DNA of 59,494 nt from Acidimicrobiia bacterium (GCA_031418035.1 JANOWU010000306.1:1-59494), one strand, 5' to 3'. Shown: positions 20,300-30,300, numbered from the stretch's first letter. The notes: generated from the letters alone by a model not told the origin. Numbers and translations: made by a program.

Positions 20300-20360
20300 G
20301 TCCCTATTCTGCCTCTCTGTTCCCACTTGGGGCGCGCACAGCGGTACCTTTGACGACGTC

Positions 20361-20888
20361 GTGCTCACCGAACTCGCTTCCCCCGCTGCCCTGCTTGCGG
20401 CGGCCATTTTCCTCGTCGCTGCCTCTGCAAAACTGCGGAGTAGATCGTCTACCCGTGCCGCAGTTGCGGCGTTCGGTCTCCCGACGGTTGTTTCGGTGGT
20501 GCTCGCCCCGGTGGAGATCGCCACCGGCCTGGCAATCCTGGTGACTCCCCGGATCGGGGCGGTCCTCGCCGCAGGTTTGCTGGTGCTGTTCAGCATCGTC
20601 GTGATCCGATCGCTTCGTCGAGGTGTTGCCGTGCGATGCGGGTGCTTCGGCGGCACCGACCAGCGACGCGTCGGCATCGACACCATGATCCGAAATCTGT
20701 TCCTGTTGGTCCTCACCATCGTTGCCGGCACCGCGTCGGGGACGCTTTCGAAACCAACGCTCCCGGCGATGGTGGCAGTCGGATCGGGCGCCATCGCGGC
20801 CATGCTGATCGTCGCCCTCGTACGACTCGGCGACGACGTGGGATCGGTGTTCGGGCAACGTCTTGATGGTTTGGGTGATCGCTCGTGA
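20361..20888 (+). CDS. mauE: MauE/DoxX family membrane protein
   Basis: About five TM segments with AIFLVAASAKL, VEIATG, CGCFG and IRNLFL motifs. GTG start inferred. Confidence 0.85.
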   Translation: MLTELASPAALLAAAIFLVAASAKLRSRSSTRAAVAAFGLPTVVSVVLAPVEIATGLAILVTPRIGAVLAAGLLVLFSIVVIRSLRRGVAVRCGCFGGTDQRRVGIDTMIRNLFLLVLTIVAGTASGTLSKPTLPAMVAVGSGAIAAMLIVALVRLGDDVGSVFGQRLDGLGDRS

Positions 20889-21397
20889 AGAACGGTCTCT
20901 GGACCCTGTCCTACGTCATCTTGTGGATCACGGTTGTGGTTCTCGGTGTCACCGTCGTTGCCCTGCTCCGCCAGATCGGGGTGTTGCATGCGCGCTTAGC
21001 ACCACTCGGGACGCACTTCGCCGGTGAGGGCCCCGAACTGAATTCGATCGCGCCGCCCGTTGGGCTCGAGTGGATGGCCGCTCCACTCACCACTGTCCTC
21101 TTCACCTCGACGACGTGCACCATCTGCCGCGAACTGAAACCGAGCATCGAAGCGCTCAAACGCCAGTACCGCGACCTTCGATTCGAGACGGTGGATGCCC
21201 AGGATCAGGCGGCGACCTTTGCCGCGTTCACGGTTCGATCAACGCCTTACGTTGTCACCGTCGATCGCGATGGCATCGTCCGTGGACGTGGTGTTGCCAA
21301 CAGCGTCGAACAAATCGAACAACTCATCACGGAGTCTCTTGCTACGACAACCGAAATCACCGAACACGCCCACAACGACAATCTAAGGAACGCATGA
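20885..21397 (+). CDS. mauD: MauD-like membrane-anchored thioredoxin-fold protein
   Basis: TM helix followed by LLRQIGVLHARLAP, CTIC (CxxC), STPY cis-Pro loop and GIVRGRGVANS. GTGA overlap with mauE. Confidence 0.87.
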   Translation: MKNGLWTLSYVILWITVVVLGVTVVALLRQIGVLHARLAPLGTHFAGEGPELNSIAPPVGLEWMAAPLTTVLFTSTTCTICRELKPSIEALKRQYRDLRFETVDAQDQAATFAAFTVRSTPYVVTVDRDGIVRGRGVANSVEQIEQLITESLATTTEITEHAHNDNLRNA

Positions 21398-23046
21398 GTA
21401 CCCTCGATCGACTGACGGAGTCGATGGCCCGTTGGACGGCGAAACGAACGACGCGTCGCTCGTTTCTCGCGAACGCTGGCCGCCTTGCGGTTGTCACGGC
21501 CGCCGGAAGCACGATCACCGCAGTATTGGCCAGTCAGGCACAGGCCCGGGTGTGCGGGCAGTCGGGCGTCTCCCCGAAGTGTCCAACGTATGACTGCCAG
21601 ACGCCAGGATTCTGGGGGTACTGCTGGTACGCGTCGCCCGGCTGCTGCGCCAACGGCGGTTTGAAGAAGATCTGCGATTGTTGCCTGACGGGCTGGCCGA
21701 ACGTCCAGGGGTACTGTCCCACCGGATCGTCCGTGTACTGCATCGTCGAGAGCTGTCTCGAAGATCCTCGGGTTCAGTCGGTGCCACTCGACCGATGGGC
21801 GAGCAAGAACCCGGTGTCGGCCGGAGTCGAGCGATCGTTGCTGCGTCCCGCGGCCGATACGGTTGTGGTGGCGAACGCCAGTGAAACGCTGGCGAGCATT
21901 CTCGCAGTGCCGGTGGCTGGCGAGCTCAATGCACCGATTCTTGGGATTACGGCCGACGCCCTCGCCGCCGAGGTAACGGCCGAGATCTCCCGACTCGGGG
22001 CAAAACGGGTTGTGGTCGCTGCGCCCGGCCTGGCTCCGGCAGTTCTCGAAGCAATAGGTGGACTTACGGTTGGTGGAGTCACCGTGGAGAATGTGGCCCC
22101 ATCCTCGGCGCCCGGCGACTTTGCAGGCGCTTCCCTGGAAGTCGCACGATGGCTGTATGCGCGTACTCTGCGCCTCGAGATCGTGGTCATCGGAACCGAT
22201 GGCGAGGCCGCGTCGATCGCACCGGCCGCTGCCGCCTTCGCCCGCGGTTTGCGGGCCCCCGTGCTCGTCGGTGCCGATGCCGCCCGTGCTTTTGCCGCCG
22301 AATTGTCAAGCAAACTTACGATCACGTCAGTCGGCACCTCGTTGCACGGAGTCTTCCCCGAAGCGGCAGCCTTCACCAAGGGCACACCGGCCTTCATCTC
22401 ACGAGCCCTGGCCGACCGAGTCATCGAACGCGACACCGGTGCCTTGAGCCTCGGTATAGCGGCAACCGTCACCGGCGGATTCGGGTACGTCGTTGCTGCG
22501 AACAACATCGTGCTCGTGCACGATACCGGCGTTGTCACCGACGAATTACGTGAATGGATCGGCACCCGACGCCGACGCTTCTCGCGAGGCGAAGTGTGCG
22601 TCGCTGCGCCAGGAGCATTCGACAACGCGAACATCTACCTCCTGCAATCGGCACTGAACGGGTTCGACGCCCAACACCTCGCCGGTGGTGGCGGAGACGG
22701 TCTTCCCGTGTACGCCCAGCCGATCGAGGAGCAGGTGATCGGGAAGGCCCGGGTGTCCGGAGCGCTCCCCCCTCAAATCGGTGCGGGAAAGCCCGTGCGC
22801 CGATCTCGCATCGAGGACCGCTATCCCGTACCGACCGTCGCGATGCCTCCTCCGACCTCGTGGCCCCCCGGCACCACGACCACCACGTTGCCGCCCGCAT
22901 CGGCGACGACCCTCGCTCCGTTGCGCCCGGCGTCGACGGTACCCGGAGCCGCACCGGCAGCCGGAACCACGCCGAACTCCTCGAAACCCCGCCCGAACAC
23001 GACCCCCACAACGACCAAAAAAACGCCACCCACGACAAAGAAATGA
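21394..23046 (+). CDS. Tat-exported protein: 12-Cys MauA (MADH light chain)-like domain + cell-wall-binding-2-like repeats + Pro/Thr tail
   Basis: TRRSFL twin-arginine signal ending AQA; 12 Cys and 3 Trp in ~68 aa including ICDCC; degenerate PILL-type repeats (NAPILG, RAPVLV); ATGA overlaps at both ends. Confidence 0.75.
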   Translation: MSTLDRLTESMARWTAKRTTRRSFLANAGRLAVVTAAGSTITAVLASQAQARVCGQSGVSPKCPTYDCQTPGFWGYCWYASPGCCANGGLKKICDCCLTGWPNVQGYCPTGSSVYCIVESCLEDPRVQSVPLDRWASKNPVSAGVERSLLRPAADTVVVANASETLASILAVPVAGELNAPILGITADALAAEVTAEISRLGAKRVVVAAPGLAPAVLEAIGGLTVGGVTVENVAPSSAPGDFAGASLEVARWLYARTLRLEIVVIGTDGEAASIAPAAAAFARGLRAPVLVGADAARAFAAELSSKLTITSVGTSLHGVFPEAAAFTKGTPAFISRALADRVIERDTGALSLGIAATVTGGFGYVVAANNIVLVHDTGVVTDELREWIGTRRRRFSRGEVCVAAPGAFDNANIYLLQSALNGFDAQHLAGGGGDGLPVYAQPIEEQVIGKARVSGALPPQIGAGKPVRRSRIEDRYPVPTVAMPPPTSWPPGTTTTTLPPASATTLAPLRPASTVPGAAPAAGTTPNSSKPRPNTTPTTTKKTPPTTKK

Positions 23047-23699
23047 GCGCCCTTGCGGCCGTCGCCGTGCTTGCGTCGTTCCTCGCCGGACTGCGCTCGC
23101 TCTGGTCACCTTGAGGCCTCTCGGTCGCCGAGACCGTTCTGCCTTCCGTGCGAGGGCCAGGAAAGTTCCTCACTGCGGTCGTGTTGCTCACCACGCTTAC
23201 TATTCCTGCAGTAGCGCTCAGTGCCGTTCTTGCCCTGGTGATCGAAGCGACGCTGCCCGAATCGCTTCGGCTCGGCACCCAATGGGTCGTTTTGGGTATC
23301 ACCCTGGCCCTCGAAGTGCTCGGCGTGCGGACCTTGGCGATTCATCGCCAGGTTCCCCAGTGGTGGGGGCACCGCTATGGTCCGGTTGCGGCCGCTGCGC
23401 GCTACGGCCTTCGCATGGGCGTTGGACCGGCAACCATTCTGTCCTCCTGGTTTTGGTGGACGGGCGTCGTCCTCGCCGCGATGGCATCGGTGCGATGGAG
23501 CGTCGTGAGCGGCGTCGTGTTCGCCGCATCGAGATTCGCCACCATGTACGCGTTGGCGTGGCGCAATCCCACCGGCGTCGAGATGGCCAACCGTGTTCGC
23601 ACGGTGGAGTCGTGGCGAACTCGCGCACGAATGCTGGCTATCGCCGCAATGGTGATCGCTTCCGGGGCAACAGCTCTGGGTCAGATTGCTGCGCGTTGA
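23043..23699 (+). CDS. MauF/DsbD-like membrane protein with in-frame TGA (candidate selenocysteine) at codon 24
   Basis: ATG overlaps the previous stop. Reads ...RSLWSP-TGA(23112)-GLSV... and stays open to 23699. RQVPQWW and YGLRMGVG..T motifs. Confidence 0.72.
23115..23135 (+). promoter_or_regulatory. Candidate bacterial SECIS hairpin
   Basis: GG-CC-TCTCGG-TCG-CCGAGA-CC begins immediately 3' of the in-frame TGA. Confidence 0.45.
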
Positions 23700-23705
23700 C
23701 CATCG

Positions 23706-25031
23706 CTACGACGCGTCGCTCGCCACTCGAAACAACGTGTCCTCATCGAATGCGCGACCGAGCAGGTCGATGCCGATTTGCGGAAAGCCGTTCGCCAATG
23801 GACCGGGAACGGCCAGCGCGGGGAGACCACTGTTGGCGGACAACCAGCAGTTCCCGGTGATCTGCTTCGCCCCTCGGCGTCCCGGAGAAGCGATCGTGGT
23901 CGGGTAGGCAATTGCGTCGAGGTTCTGCTTGTCGAGAAGCTCGAGAATTCGAGTTCGTAAGCGCGCTTGCGAAGTTAGCCTGGAGGCGTACGCTGCGTTC
24001 TTGGGCAACGTCCACGGAACTTCACCTCGACGCCAGAGCGAACGCGCCCTCTCGAACTCGTCGTCGATGACGGACGCACCAACCAGACCCGTAGATCCGA
24101 TATCCACAACGACGTATCCGTTGGCACGAAGAATGCCGACCGGAGAGCCGGCCCCGCGATCCACCCTGCCGAATCCCCCGAACACACCGATCCGACGACT
24201 TCGCTCGCGCGCAGGAGCTTGCCTTGCCCCAAGAGTCAAAGGATCGAGGGCGTCGGGTTGCGAGATGACGTCGAACAGCAGCTGAAGATCGTCGACGTTG
24301 CGGGCCAACGGTCCCACGACGTCTTGGGTCGGCGAGAGGGGAACGACGCCATGCCGGCTCACCGCGCCTTTCGTCGGCCGCAATCCGAATATGCCATTCG
24401 CCGACGCCGGATAGCGAATCGAACCGCAGGTATCTGTACCAAGTGCGATGTCGACCATCCCCGTCGCAACGGCGACGGCACTCCCCCCGCTCGAACCCAG
24501 CGGAGAACGGTTGGGGTCGAACGCGTTGCCCGTGGAGCCAAACTCGCTGACCGAGCGGGTGCCCCGGGCCCACGAATCCATGTTCGTCGCCCCCACGATG
24601 ATGCCGCCGGCCTCAAGTATCTGACGCACAACGAAAGCATCGACTACCGGACGCGATGGGCTGCGGTTCGTGTGACGCACCCCGGCGCTTGCCGGCAGCG
24701 TCGCAAGGTCGATGTTCGCCTTGATCGCAATCGTCCGTCGATCGAGCACCCCACTCGTGGTTTCGCCGAACTCACCATCGCGTTGTCGAGCGATCGCGAC
24801 TGCGTCTTCGTTTCTGGCGATGAACGCCCCGAAGCGCTGGTCCTCACGCATGATCGTCGCCAGGGCATCACGGGCAATCTGTTCGCGGCTGAGGCCGGGC
24901 GATGTGATCGATGCGGTCGGCTGAGCGACGTTTGCCGTCGCCGAGGCCGAGGCCGAGGCCGAGGCCGACAAGACGGCGACGGCAACGCCAAGCGCGAGAG
25001 CGCCCGAGAAGGCACCCGACCGCACGATCAC
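23706..25031 (-). CDS. Secreted amidase-signature family enzyme
   Basis: AIKANI (Lys), GSSGGSA and GTDTCGSIRYPA. Signal peptide present. GTG overlaps the pbpC stop. Confidence 0.88.
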   Translation of the reverse strand: MIVRSGAFSGALALGVAVAVLSASASASASATANVAQPTASITSPGLSREQIARDALATIMREDQRFGAFIARNEDAVAIARQRDGEFGETTSGVLDRRTIAIKANIDLATLPASAGVRHTNRSPSRPVVDAFVVRQILEAGGIIVGATNMDSWARGTRSVSEFGSTGNAFDPNRSPLGSSGGSAVAVATGMVDIALGTDTCGSIRYPASANGIFGLRPTKGAVSRHGVVPLSPTQDVVGPLARNVDDLQLLFDVISQPDALDPLTLGARQAPARERSRRIGVFGGFGRVDRGAGSPVGILRANGYVVVDIGSTGLVGASVIDDEFERARSLWRRGEVPWTLPKNAAYASRLTSQARLRTRILELLDKQNLDAIAYPTTIASPGRRGAKQITGNCWLSANSGLPALAVPGPLANGFPQIGIDLLGRAFDEDTLFRVASDAS

Positions 25032-27376: not shown

Positions 27377-30300
27377 CTACGCCGCCGCCTTTGGCGGGGA
27401 AATCTTGACCGTTGTCGCCTTGGTTCGACCCATGACCTCGCTGCGATACATCTCCTCGACCTGGGCCGGAGGTGCCACGAAGGTACCCGGTGCCGTGGCC
27501 CGGGCGACGTAGGTGTAGACGAACGAACCCGGTTCGAGCCACGTGGCAAACAGCAGCACACGATCGTCGCGAATCTCGGTGTGATCGACGCCAGCCTGCC
27601 ACGGCGACCTCGGAGCCGCGCTGGGCTCACCGTCAGAATCTTCGCCTCGCAACTCTTCCGACGAGGTCGTGGTCAGCTGGGCATTCAACGCCTCGAACCC
27701 GGCAGGCAACAAGTCTTCAATGGCCACGTTCGAACGTTGTTGCGGCGACGACACCCGCAGGGTTACCCGGACAAGATCACCGGCGGCGAAGGACGTCGCC
27801 GATGCCGACGATGCCGACGATCGGCCCGTCGGCTTCTTCACACTCTCGGCGGCACGAGCGGCGACGGGGTCGAACAGCGCGTAGGAGCGTTCGATGGTGA
27901 AGCCCTGATCGATAGCGAGCAGACGTTGAGCCGGAACCGCGTACCGTAAGCGCGCTGACCAGTTCAGCGAACCGGTACCGATCGCTTTCACCACGAAGTC
28001 CTTGCCGGCCGCTGCGGCGTCTTTGATGGGAGTGGAATTCGAACGCACCTCAAGCGATCGCCCGTTGAACGACTGGTCGACCAACGTCTTCGTGCCGAGG
28101 GTGATGACCGTGGCGAGCTTCGGTGCCTGCGCTTCCGTTGTGGACGCAACCTGCACCAGTGCGTCGAGCGCTTCGCCGCTCTCCAGCGTATTCCCCCACG
28201 TGCCGCGGGTCCGAGCCCCAACAAGCCACGTTGCCATCTTCGGGATCAGCGGATGCTTCGCGTCGACTCTGCTCAGCAACGACAGGAGCAGCGACGTGTC
28301 ACGAACCGATCGGCCCGATGTGCTCGAAACCAAATACGACAGACCGGGCGAGCCGTCATAGTCGAGCCCAGATTGTACGAATGCGCGGTCGTTTTCGATA
28401 CGCACCGATGCGAGCAAATCGGAGAACAGCGTGGTGGTCCGGTCGCTGACCTCGCCGGCTTCGAGCATGGCGCGAAGCAGGTACACCTGTTCTTCGAAGG
28501 GCAGCTGGTAGCGGTCCGTATAGAGCGCGTCGACCGAGGCCGTCTCCGGCTTCCCTTCCCGGGCGAGCACGTACGCCACGAGGGCACGAACGGGACCGAG
28601 GTCATACCCTTCCTCGGAAGCGAACTCATCGTCGCTGGCGACGAAGCCGACGCTCGCCTGGAGTGATTTCGTAAGCCCACGAATCATTCCCGCCGGCACG
28701 CTTATCTTTGCCGCTTTCGCATCACGAAGTAGCACAAGCGTACGTGCGCTGAGGTACGGATCCACCGCATCGGTGCCGGGCCAGTACGAAAGGCCCCCAA
28801 CGGACGTCTGGAACGGTCGAAGCAGGCGCAGCTCGCGAGCCACGACCGACTTCAGATTTTTCGGAACGCCGGGAAGAGCGAACTGTTCGTCGAGTTGGGC
28901 CAGCTTCAACAGCACGCGGATCCGCGAGGTCCGCTGCTCCAGACACCCGTACGGATACTCGACAAGATCTCTGATCGAGTTCTGCAACCCGGCAAGACTC
29001 GATGTCGAAACCGAAACATCGAGCCCCCCGAGTCCGGGAAGGGCATCGGGCGGCGTCGAGACTCGTTCGGTCGGAGAAACACTTCCGGCCGAGGTTGCCG
29101 CGACCGTTCCGCTCGTTGCGACAACCGCAAGTCGTTGGGTGACGGTCACGGGGAATGAGCCGGCGACCTTGTCGGAGGTCTCGCCGGACGTCGCTCCGTT
29201 GACGCCGCCGGAGAACACGAGGTTTCCCCGGCCAGTCTTGGTGGCACGGAACGGAAAGCGAACTTCGACCGGTTTGTCGCTCACCGACGCGACCGTGATC
29301 TCGGCTGGACCGCTCAGCGCCAGACTGTCGTCGGAAAGTGCCACTCGCACTGTTACCGGCCCGGTCGTGCCCGTTCGATTGAATACCACGACGCCGGCCT
29401 CGAACGTGTCGCCCACGTTCACGAATCTCGGCAACGCCGGTTGCAGCATCAACGGCTTACGAACTTCGACCGTGGACTTCGCGACGCCGAACTGGTCGAC
29501 ATCGGACGCCGCGACGGCAATGATTCGATAGGCCGTCAGCGACTCCGGGAGCTTCACGTCGACCGACGCTTTTCCGGACGACGGCACGTCGACCGCACCG
29601 GCCCATACGGCCAGGGTACGGAAGTCCTTGCGAATTCCCTCGCCGACTGCTGAGCTTCCCCCACCGCCGCCGTCGACGACATCTCCGCCACTTTCGTCGC
29701 CCTTGTCATCGTCCGATATCGACTGAAGGCGCATACGGGAGTCGGCGGTGTTCACCTGGAGCTGACGCTCCGAATAAAAGGTGCTCAACAGGTCTGGTTC
29801 GGTATAGCCGGTGAGACGTAACACGCCTTCGTCGACCGCCCAAAGCGTCACCTCAGCAGGCGAAGCAACATCCTTCGCATCCTTGATCTCCACATCGACC
29901 TTGGTGCTTTCGCCGGGAAGGAACGACGATTGCGACGTCGATGCCTTGACCTGCAACGTGCGGGTCGTCGGTGGAACCGAGAGAGACTCGGTCACCGATA
30001 AGACCTGTGGCTTGCCGTTTGCGATGGCTCGCTGTTTCGGGTCCTTGGGCAATGCACCGAACAACGTCACCGTCACGTAAATATTCGGTGCCGATGCTTT
30101 GTCGATGGGCACTTCTACGGTGCTCGCCGACGACGGAAGTGAGATGCGCTTGGACGCGACAACTCCTGCGCGCTCGATCGTCAACATGCCCTCGGCCTTC
30201 TCCCAAGGTGACTTGACCAGGATCACTGCGCGATCGCCGGGTTGATATGAGGTCTTATCGGTTACGAGGGACACCGTCGGTTCTTCACCGGCGCCTTCCC

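Follow-up and report, generated by a model that had tools for sequence, protein, structure and literature searches.

A conserved Mau-like gene cassette of Acidimicrobiia with a wall-anchored, cysteine-rich cargo protein and a probable MauF-like selenoprotein

We analysed a stretch of 59,494 nucleotides (the window) from an Acidimicrobiia bacterium (GCA_031418035.1, JANOWU010000306.1:1-59494), whose genome (G000) is 93.81% complete and consists of 319 contigs. Four co-directional genes at 20361-23699 on the plus strand are joined by GTGA or ATGA stop-start overlaps and resemble parts of methylamine dehydrogenase (mau) clusters. They encode, in this order, a MauE-like membrane protein, a MauD-like thioredoxin-fold protein, a cysteine-rich exported protein that we call the cargo, and a MauF-like membrane protein with an in-frame TGA that we read as selenocysteine (Sec) (Table 1). 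An earlier note, made from the sequence alone, had described an orphan Mau-like operon with a surface-tethered, MauA-like cargo. Inspection of the open reading frames (ORFs) bears out its coordinates and overlaps (20885, 21394 and 23043), the CGC of MauE, the CTIC of MauD, and the twin-arginine translocation (Tat) motif RR and 12 cysteines of the cargo. The in-frame TGA of the fourth gene was absent from that account.

Table 1. Features of the cassette, in positions of the window.
Feature	Position	Strand	Details
mauE-like membrane protein	20361-20888	+	175 aa; GTG start at 20361 plausible; TGA stop 20886-20888
mauD-like thioredoxin-fold protein	20885-21397	+	170 aa; GTG start overlaps mauE-like stop as GTGA
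Cargo gene	21394-23046	+	ATG start overlaps mauD-like stop as ATGA; TGA stop 23044-23046
Cargo leader	21394-21546	+	residues 1-51; MauA-type twin-arginine; invariant R21 R22; predicted cleavage A49-x-A51 / R52
Cargo Cys-rich domain	21547-21771	+	residues 52-126; 12 invariant Cys; motifs WGxCWYA and GLKKICDCC
Triple CWB2-like wall-binding domain	21781-22728	+	cargo residues about 130-445; assignment based on fold
C-terminal Pro/Thr-rich tail	22729-23046	+	low complexity, variable; ends at stop TGA
mauF-like membrane selenoprotein (putative)	23043-23699	+	218 aa; Sec at codon 24; ATG start overlaps cargo stop as ATGA
In-frame TGA, putatively read as selenocysteine	23112-23114	+	codon 24
Hairpin 1, candidate selenocysteine insertion sequence (SECIS)	23122-23136	+	starts 7 nt after UGA (11th nt from its U)
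Hairpin 2, SECIS candidate	23141-23157	+	invariant G and U in apical loop

The fourth gene is easily overlooked. The frame that opens at 23043 reaches the in-frame TGA after 23 codons, and there is no ATG, GTG or TTG from 23115 to 23147, the first being the GTG at 23148, so a mechanical ORF finder reports only 23148-23699 (183 aa). BLASTP of this shorter form against MauF finds nothing (E 56), and the link to MauF emerges by profile comparison only. When 68 full-length members of the gene-4 family, with X at the position of the stop, were aligned by hhalign with six annotated MauF proteins, the match had a probability of 96.5% (E 1e-9, 179 columns), and the X fell on the cysteine of the MauF motif 'STWSPCGYSS', which is invariant in 6/6 MauF. 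The part after the stop also matches MauF by itself (94.2%, E 1.1e-7), whereas the controls, ten shuffled and one reversed, reach no better than E 0.34. Pfam has no match for the long forms of gene 4 and nothing significant for MauF together with nine gene-4 forms; in Pfam and NCBIfam no model covers either the MauF of Paracoccus denitrificans or the full-length gene 4. By these profiles, gene 4 and MauF are distant homologues, in keeping with the 'MauF-like' of the earlier note.

Both sides of the TGA are conserved. Related loci share the odd geometry that the window has between cargo and gene 4, and the peptide …AGLRSLWSP * G[LR]SVAETVxPSVRG… is kept before and after the stop in 33 of 34 loci as well as in the window (the sequence of the 34th begins after the stop). 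In the window, the predicted peptide that spans codon 24 is …SLWSP-U-GLSVAETVLPSVR. The stop is TGA in all 75 loci that hold the region, the other 6 of the 81 loci ending before the codon. Two full-length homologues, P0186 and P0187, carry cysteine at this place ('RSTWSPCG'), and among 13 loci from other Actinomycetota the codon is TGA in nine and TGC or TGT in four (L129, L130, L131, L138). The genome encodes the machinery to insert Sec: selB (256.5 bits), selA (407.1 bits), selD (346.2 bits) and tRNA-Sec (63.6 bits) are all over their cut-offs, and ARAGORN finds a tRNA-SeC with anticodon tca. Two trivial explanations were rejected. An assembly error is at odds with the contigs of X3, X4 and X6, three other sequencing runs of two studies, which do not differ at the codon, and a global recoding of TGA is at odds with its ordinary use as the stop codon of all four cassette genes.

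The region downstream of the UGA has two candidate SECIS hairpins, which we analysed in a gapless alignment of 74 sequences (A4). In hairpin 1, columns 11-15 pair with columns 21-25 in 80% of the cells, and the pair 12-24 is GC in 51 sequences and CG in 10. In hairpin 2, columns 30-35 pair with columns 41-46 in 95.3% of the cells, and three pairs are changed on both sides, i.e., compensatorily. Taken together, the covariation of the two hairpins is 0.277, against 0.096 in shuffled alignments (none of 500 reaches the observed value) and at most 0.092 when the partners are slid. In other subfamilies, a hairpin of 6 bp lies at the distance of hairpin 1 in 9/9 Sec forms (8/8 without L134, from the unpublished genome G268) and in 0/4 Cys forms. 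Rfam reports no family in 22950-23300. The conserved TGA, the conservation of the peptide on both sides of it, the cysteine homologues, the hairpins and the Sec machinery lead us to read gene 4 as a selenoprotein gene, very probably spanning 23043-23699 with Sec at codon 24.

Public gene calls miss this start: 16 close homologues of gene 4 in a collection of 5.8 billion proteins have 141-191 aa and were called from after the TGA. The family varies at its other end. The MauF-like gene is long (at least 260 aa, up to about 510) in 49 of the 68 full-length members (e.g., L031 7568-9097, L052 7473-8972), with an extra C-terminal domain that follows the last membrane helix and a Ser/Thr/Pro linker and is missing in the clade of the window; its motif 'ETRGF..GW.R.F…VY.F…Y..DG' is conserved, and it has no Pfam family. 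The selD gene (L120, G000:C151:10585-11526) has one in-frame TGA inside its match, and the SelD of this genome may itself be a selenoprotein.

The first two genes have clearer relatives. Gene 1, named MauE in the earlier note, matches the Pfam family of MauE (PF07291) with 75.6 bits (E 5.9e-21), well over the gathering cut-off of 27. It is 29% identical to the MauE of P. denitrificans (BLASTP, E 9e-5), and its motif R-C93-G-C95-F-G (about 20637-20645), a CXC followed by F-G, aligns with the CGCF of that protein. Gene 2 matches Pfam Thioredoxin (E 1.4e-8), with CTIC at C78-C81, and has an N-terminal membrane anchor, with a hydrophobic segment at residues 3-36 and the motif 'RQ[IV]G.LH.R' of MauD. 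In BLASTP it is 27% identical to the MauD of P. denitrificans (175 residues aligned, E 2e-22), and the alignment covers both the anchor motif and the CxxC. The match to the NCBIfam model of MauD (TIGR02661; E 5.2e-17) has 61.9 bits, far under the equivalog cut-off of 188.6. By this comparison the protein is a MauD-like relative rather than an equivalog. A tblastn search with it against plasmids matched nothing.

Two MauE proteins can substitute for DsbB in Escherichia coli, for which the CXC motif is required, and MauA occurs in just 10.2% of the species that have MauE, according to the parts of a recent preprint covered here (10.64898/2026.03.05.709764). Hence an 'orphan' MauE is not unusual in itself, a point absent from the earlier note. 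Searches of this genome for MauB (PF06433) and MauG (PF03150) gave no match at E ≤ 1, in line with the note. The genome has a second MauE (L002 1501-1899, G000:C190:7388-7774; Pfam 86.3 bits, motif C-H-C), which sits between a UbiA-family prenyltransferase gene on the opposite strand and an AMP-binding ligase gene. This copy may have a housekeeping role linked to menaquinone, but the 'men' assignment is a guess.

The cargo has at least 413 homologues, and all 120 of those listed are named 'hypothetical protein'. In an alignment of 34 homologues (A1), full-length proteins are 38-80% identical, and the N-terminus 'MSTLDRLTE…' of the window is consistent with theirs. Pfam and NCBIfam find no family and nothing useful in the whole cargo or in its three pieces. 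The leader is nevertheless recognisable by profile comparison with the light chains of a comparison set made of the P. denitrificans mau cluster (NC_008688.1) and eight further light-chain genes. Aligned by hhalign with nine MauA leaders, the cargo leaders match with 97.0% (E 1.2e-10; E 0.024-0.65 in ten shuffles), and the stretch before the twin arginines matches on its own (91.5%, E 8.6e-7). The likeness therefore exceeds a mere Tat consensus: the cargo shares with the light chains a long leader with a conserved stretch before RR. Likewise, 31 of 41 N-terminal family members scanned singly match TIGR02659 (best E 8.9e-8, far under its 196.85 bits), and at most one member each of other Tat-bearing families does so. 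Gene order points the same way: mauE-mauD-mauA in P. denitrificans corresponds to the order of E, D and cargo here, and in 8/8 further loci the light-chain gene is immediately preceded by a mauD or redoxin gene.

The domain behind the leader is different. The twin arginines and the 12 cysteines (residues 54-121; the whole cargo has 13) are invariant in the 34 aligned homologues, and the domain is 63-90% identical to that of the window across 73 relatives, with a mean column identity of 80% in an alignment of 74 sequences (A2). It is thus better kept than the full-length cargo, which suggests an important function. The domain has no sequence match in Pfam, NCBIfam or the PDB (best E 1.3 in a PDB profile search) and no usable match in the Protein Atlas. 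Modelled alone with AlphaFold2 (AF2), it has a predicted local distance difference test score (pLDDT) of 68.6, i.e., moderate confidence, and Foldseek with this model finds nothing in the PDB at E ≤ 0.001 (best E 2.1). Against mature MauA, hhalign shows no likeness (4.5%, E 0.009), and the light-chain family PF02975 does not match the cargo, so that neither the light-chain fold nor the two tryptophans of the tryptophan tryptophylquinone (TTQ) cofactor were recovered. A MauA over the cut-off is found in none of 401 Actinomycetota genomes (a survey that includes the unpublished-flagged G174 and G226). The earlier note's description of the cargo as MauA-like accordingly holds for its leader and not for its mature part: judged by sequence, leader and gene order are Mau-like, and the mature domain is either of a different kind or too diverged to be recognised.

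A profile search of 1.84 billion representatives gave 57 proteins with this domain at E ≤ 0.001, 36 of them at E ≤ 1e-30. These 36 mostly have 440-540 aa, with the domain near the N-terminus, and five are shorter (111-367 aa); a handful of short, stand-alone relatives, 124-158 aa in length, also came up. A word-indexed search with P0168 yielded no relatives, and in the PDB this protein matches a methylamine dehydrogenase light chain without significance (E 3.9).

The rest of the cargo looks like an anchor. AF2 models residues 130-440 with pLDDT > 90, and all 11 Foldseek matches in the PDB at E ≤ 0.001 are the high-molecular-weight (HMW) SlpA, Cwp6 or Cwp8 of Clostridioides difficile (E 2.7e-11 to 6.2e-8, probability 1.00). 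The cell-wall-binding repeats that the earlier note had seen are thus supported by the fold; Pfam finds no family at E ≤ 10 in residues 136-435 and hence no CW_binding_2 (PF04122), which is precomputed on just one of the 120 listed homologues. The assignment to triple CWB2 domains is consequently a model-based one, made from fold rather than from Pfam. The tail has pLDDT < 50 from residue 469, and neither its length nor its sequence is conserved in A1.

The four genes travel together. We kept 80 cargo-bearing loci, all from metagenome-assembled genomes and labelled mostly Acidimicrobiia or Acidimicrobiales, some Actinomycetes or Actinomycetota, and one Acidobacteria. Counting among them only loci with enough flanking DNA, MauD is present in 71/71, the fourth gene in 69/69, MauE in 65/67 and all four genes in 59/61; order and strand are identical in the 59 complete loci. 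This co-occurrence and fixed order show that the chaining is beyond chance, and the conservation in other genomes on which the earlier note had made its proposal depend is there. In 35 of the 80 loci (e.g., L068 3966-4832), but not in the window, mauE is closely preceded on its own strand by a gene for a DUF4214 protein (about 289 aa, E 3.9e-23); in L085 (1-405) the gene before mauE ends in repeats that, judged by eye, resemble the CWB2 type. DNA nearly identical to 20300-23750 of the window occurs in eight freshwater or other sediment metagenome runs of two studies, and a small share of it in a ninth.

The MauF-like family reaches further than the cassette. A Cys-form query gave 82 matches in 78 of the 401 Actinomycetota genomes: 68 with a TGA inside, 13 without a stop and one with a TAG only. 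Without the unpublished-flagged genomes of this survey (G268, G226, G018, G239, G001, G120, G174, G391 and G048), 72 matches in 69 genomes are left (58 TGA, 13 no stop, 1 TAG). In seven unflagged genomes (G033, G161, G014, G354, G106, G170 and G376), the MauF-like match is preceded on its strand, at a distance of 0.40-0.49 kb, by a weak match to the MauA leader. All five inspected loci from these genomes, which belong to other actinobacterial families, have genes for MauE and MauD, for a Tat protein that stands alone and has a related Cys domain, and for the MauF-like protein. In G014, G354 and G170, which are of one actinobacterial family, the MauF-like and MauE matches lie in one open frame of 583 or 487 aa (L090 2091-3086, L092 2-1012), which suggests a MauF-MauE fusion. 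A second MauF-like subfamily (L129-L138, 'RS.WSP[C/U]G.SML') has both Sec and Cys forms; within 1.5 kb its ten loci show neither MauE nor a leader protein, and four of them have weak thioredoxin matches (with the MauD query) within about 1.5 kb.

What might such a cassette do? Its sequence likenesses indicate that it shares descent with the MauF/MauE/MauD/MauA part of methylamine dehydrogenase clusters. We infer every biochemical step that follows, the topology of the Sec residue and the role of the displayed domain. The MauA-type twin-arginine leader would direct the cargo to export, and the triple CWB2 domain would hold it in the cell wall, displaying a domain of 70 residues whose 12 invariant cysteines most likely form six disulfides. 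These would be introduced by the membrane-anchored thioredoxin MauD through its CxxC, and MauE, with its CGC, would re-oxidise MauD as a DsbB-like oxidase that draws on the quinone pool. Twelve cysteines can be paired in 10,395 ways. The single-Sec MauF-like protein may be the third redox component, i.e., a nucleophile that resolves or shuffles wrong or mixed disulfides through a selenenyl-sulfide. We take the displayed domain for a binding or structural module knotted by disulfides, and not for a quinone enzyme. Taken whole, this reading of a dehydrogenase-free, Mau-derived cassette that serves a wall-displayed cargo with 12 cysteines by selenium-dependent oxidative folding seems to us probable, with real room for doubt. 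We are more hesitant about its extension to the whole family, in which MauF-type proteins would be membrane selenol/thiol oxidoreductases that form, with MauE and MauD, a three-part, leader-guided machine for folding and proofreading disulfide-dense proteins of the Tat type; it is a tentative idea, somewhat less likely to be right than wrong.

Several observations weigh against selenium-dependent oxidative folding or some step of it. Hydrophobic segments and charges, counted by eye, would put the Sec loop on the cytoplasmic side or within the membrane, which makes direct contact between the Sec and the exported cysteines uncertain. A single redox residue sets the MauF-like protein apart from DsbD and CcdA, which have two cysteines. 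MauD, whose score is far under the equivalog cut-off, might reduce instead of oxidise. The six disulfides are assumed, given the moderate confidence of the model of the Cys domain. On the Mau side, the leader of the window's own cargo has no match to TIGR02659, and the mature domain shows no detectable likeness to MauA. The cargo domain is also rare: of 400 genomes sampled from the class, only seven have it, always in the order of the window. All seven carriers have selA, which is weak support since 274 of the 400 have it (this survey includes the unpublished-flagged G582, G645, G758 and G624).

Other readings share part of the same evidence. A mechanical ORF call gives exactly what one would expect if the TGA at 23112 were a plain stop, namely a gene for a membrane peptide of 23 codons beside a separate gene of 183 aa that starts at GTG 23148; all public gene calls begin after the TGA, and in several relatives a GTG follows it closely, at 'VAET' or 'VRG'. 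Yet the stop is never TAA or TAG in the 75 loci, the peptide GLSVAET behind it is conserved although the first start codon behind it in the window is at 23148, homologues with TGC or TGT are read through at what is an invariant cysteine of MauF, and the hairpins 3' of the codon are specific to Sec forms, all of which makes a plain stop very improbable. It is also quite unlikely that MauE and MauD are a general cellular disulfide pair that adjoins a Cys-rich gene by chance. The preprint, in the parts covered here, argues that MauE is a generalist, citing the few MauE species that have MauA (10.64898/2026.03.05.709764); against this, the four genes stay together with overlapping stops and starts in nearly all loci with enough flank, the second MauE of the genome fits a housekeeping role better, and the cargo is confined to the seven class genomes just mentioned.

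Two further alternatives concern the cargo. Its domain could be a true quinoprotein small subunit with a cofactor derived from Trp or Cys, like TTQ or cysteine tryptophylquinone (CTQ), and the cassette a minimal, wall-displayed amine or other dehydrogenase. Mature MauA also has 12 cysteines. The MauA-type leader, the E-D-cargo order and the 12 cysteines of the cargo domain would fit, as would the invariant W78 and the nearly invariant W74 beside cysteines, and the weak hhalign match contains a local resemblance of 'ICDCC...CPTGS...C' to 'ICDCS...CPPGT...C' of MauA. But the domain has about 70 residues versus 131 in mature MauA, the Trp stretch of MauA is gapped in the cargo in that same alignment, the fold search found no match in a PDB that holds light chains such as 3c75_L, and searches gave no MauB or MauG in the genome, 93.8% complete, and no PF02975 match in the cargo; we judge this reading as improbable as the chance pairing. 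Somewhat less remote, though still unlikely, is a reductive system in which MauD and the Sec protein keep the 12 cysteines reduced, the wall domain then binding metal as a metallothionein-like store or sensor. The MauF-like family is faintly like DsbD/CcdA (an Atlas cluster has DsbD_2 on 16% of its members, and one relative matches NCBIfam DsbD with E 0.12), four loci of the second subfamily have weak thioredoxin matches nearby and no MauE, and an earlier study, as told in the preprint, proposed that MauE might be a reductase (10.64898/2026.03.05.709764). That same preprint, as far as its covered parts go, showed MauE to act as an oxidant in place of DsbB; moreover, a domain of 12 cysteines outside the cytoplasm, in an aerobic wall, would oxidise, and no metal-handling gene is conserved among the 80 loci. 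We thus keep to oxidative folding of a displayed, disulfide-rich domain.

Placing this cassette among known systems shows what is new. The P. denitrificans mau cluster (NC_008688.1) has the gene content mauR / mauF-B-E-D-A-amicyanin-J-G-napG-napH. The cassette shares with it homologues of MauE, MauD and MauF, a MauA-type leader, the order of E, D and leader protein and the position of the MauF redox residue. It differs in having no MauB, MauG, amicyanin or MauJ and in a mature cargo unlike MauA and joined to a wall anchor; its MauF-like gene follows the cargo instead of coming first, encodes a protein without roughly the first 60 residues of MauF, and has Sec in place of Cys. Compared with the DsbB-like MauE of the preprint, the MauE here is likewise a four-helix membrane protein with CXC-F-G (here RCGCFG), of a kind often found without MauA and for which a thioredoxin-fold partner such as MauD was proposed; there it is treated as a generalist, and the Results, in the passages covered, present no dedicated cassette, MauF-like partner or selenium (10.64898/2026.03.05.709764). 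The CWB2 proteins of C. difficile (SlpA HMW, Cwp6, Cwp8; PDB 9f8e, 5j72, 5j6q) also join a triple CWB2 anchor to a variable functional domain, but they are 13-19% identical to the cargo, which has no Pfam match, an N-terminal Cys knot of 70 residues, a Tat-type leader and an actinobacterial host. With DsbD and CcdA, gene 4 shares a polytopic membrane topology and a 'P-C/U-G' redox residue in the first hydrophobic segment, and some of its relatives adjoin thioredoxin-like genes; the sequence likeness is faint and non-significant, it has a single redox residue where they have two, and no curated model makes it a member.

Like the catalogued prokaryotic selenoproteins (PMC13188914, in the passages covered), the MauF-like protein appears to be of redox type, has Cys homologues and has a UGA followed by a hairpin. 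Those passages contain nothing that corresponds to a MauF-like selenoprotein. A literature search returned no relevant paper that pairs MauF or methylamine utilization with selenocysteine or a selenoprotein, PMC13188914 and PMC12013277 (deep-Sep) being covered by passages. The Mau helper set is known; new, as far as these sources go, is a dehydrogenase-free, wall-directed variant with a selenoprotein family that we did not find in print, nor in Pfam or NCBIfam.

Upstream of the cassette lies a 3-dehydroquinate synthase gene, and an amidase gene and a class A penicillin-binding protein gene lie downstream, all on the opposite strand; they are unrelated housekeeping genes. The sole PF02975 match of the genome is at 27594-27761 (+) of the window and is weak (18.8 bits, E 0.0069, cut-off 25). 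We take it as noise because matches under the cut-off also occur in 5 of 14 control genomes.

Since the description of the mau clusters, MauF is not known to have been given a biochemical role. The probable occurrence of Sec at the position of its invariant cysteine, in 68 of 82 actinobacterial matches, marks that cysteine as catalytic and redox-active. If the wider reading of MauF-type proteins as selenol/thiol oxidoreductases is true, the same chemistry would explain the role of MauF in the maturation of methylamine dehydrogenase, and Actinomycetota would have a further bacterial disulfide system in which selenocysteine is the preferred catalytic residue. The MauF-like selenoproteins would be an uncatalogued, widespread, membrane-bound family, and since public gene calls truncate it, selenoproteome counts for Actinomycetota would be too low. 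More generally, the Mau helpers and the MauA-type leader appear to be a transferable export and folding module that can serve a cargo other than a dehydrogenase.

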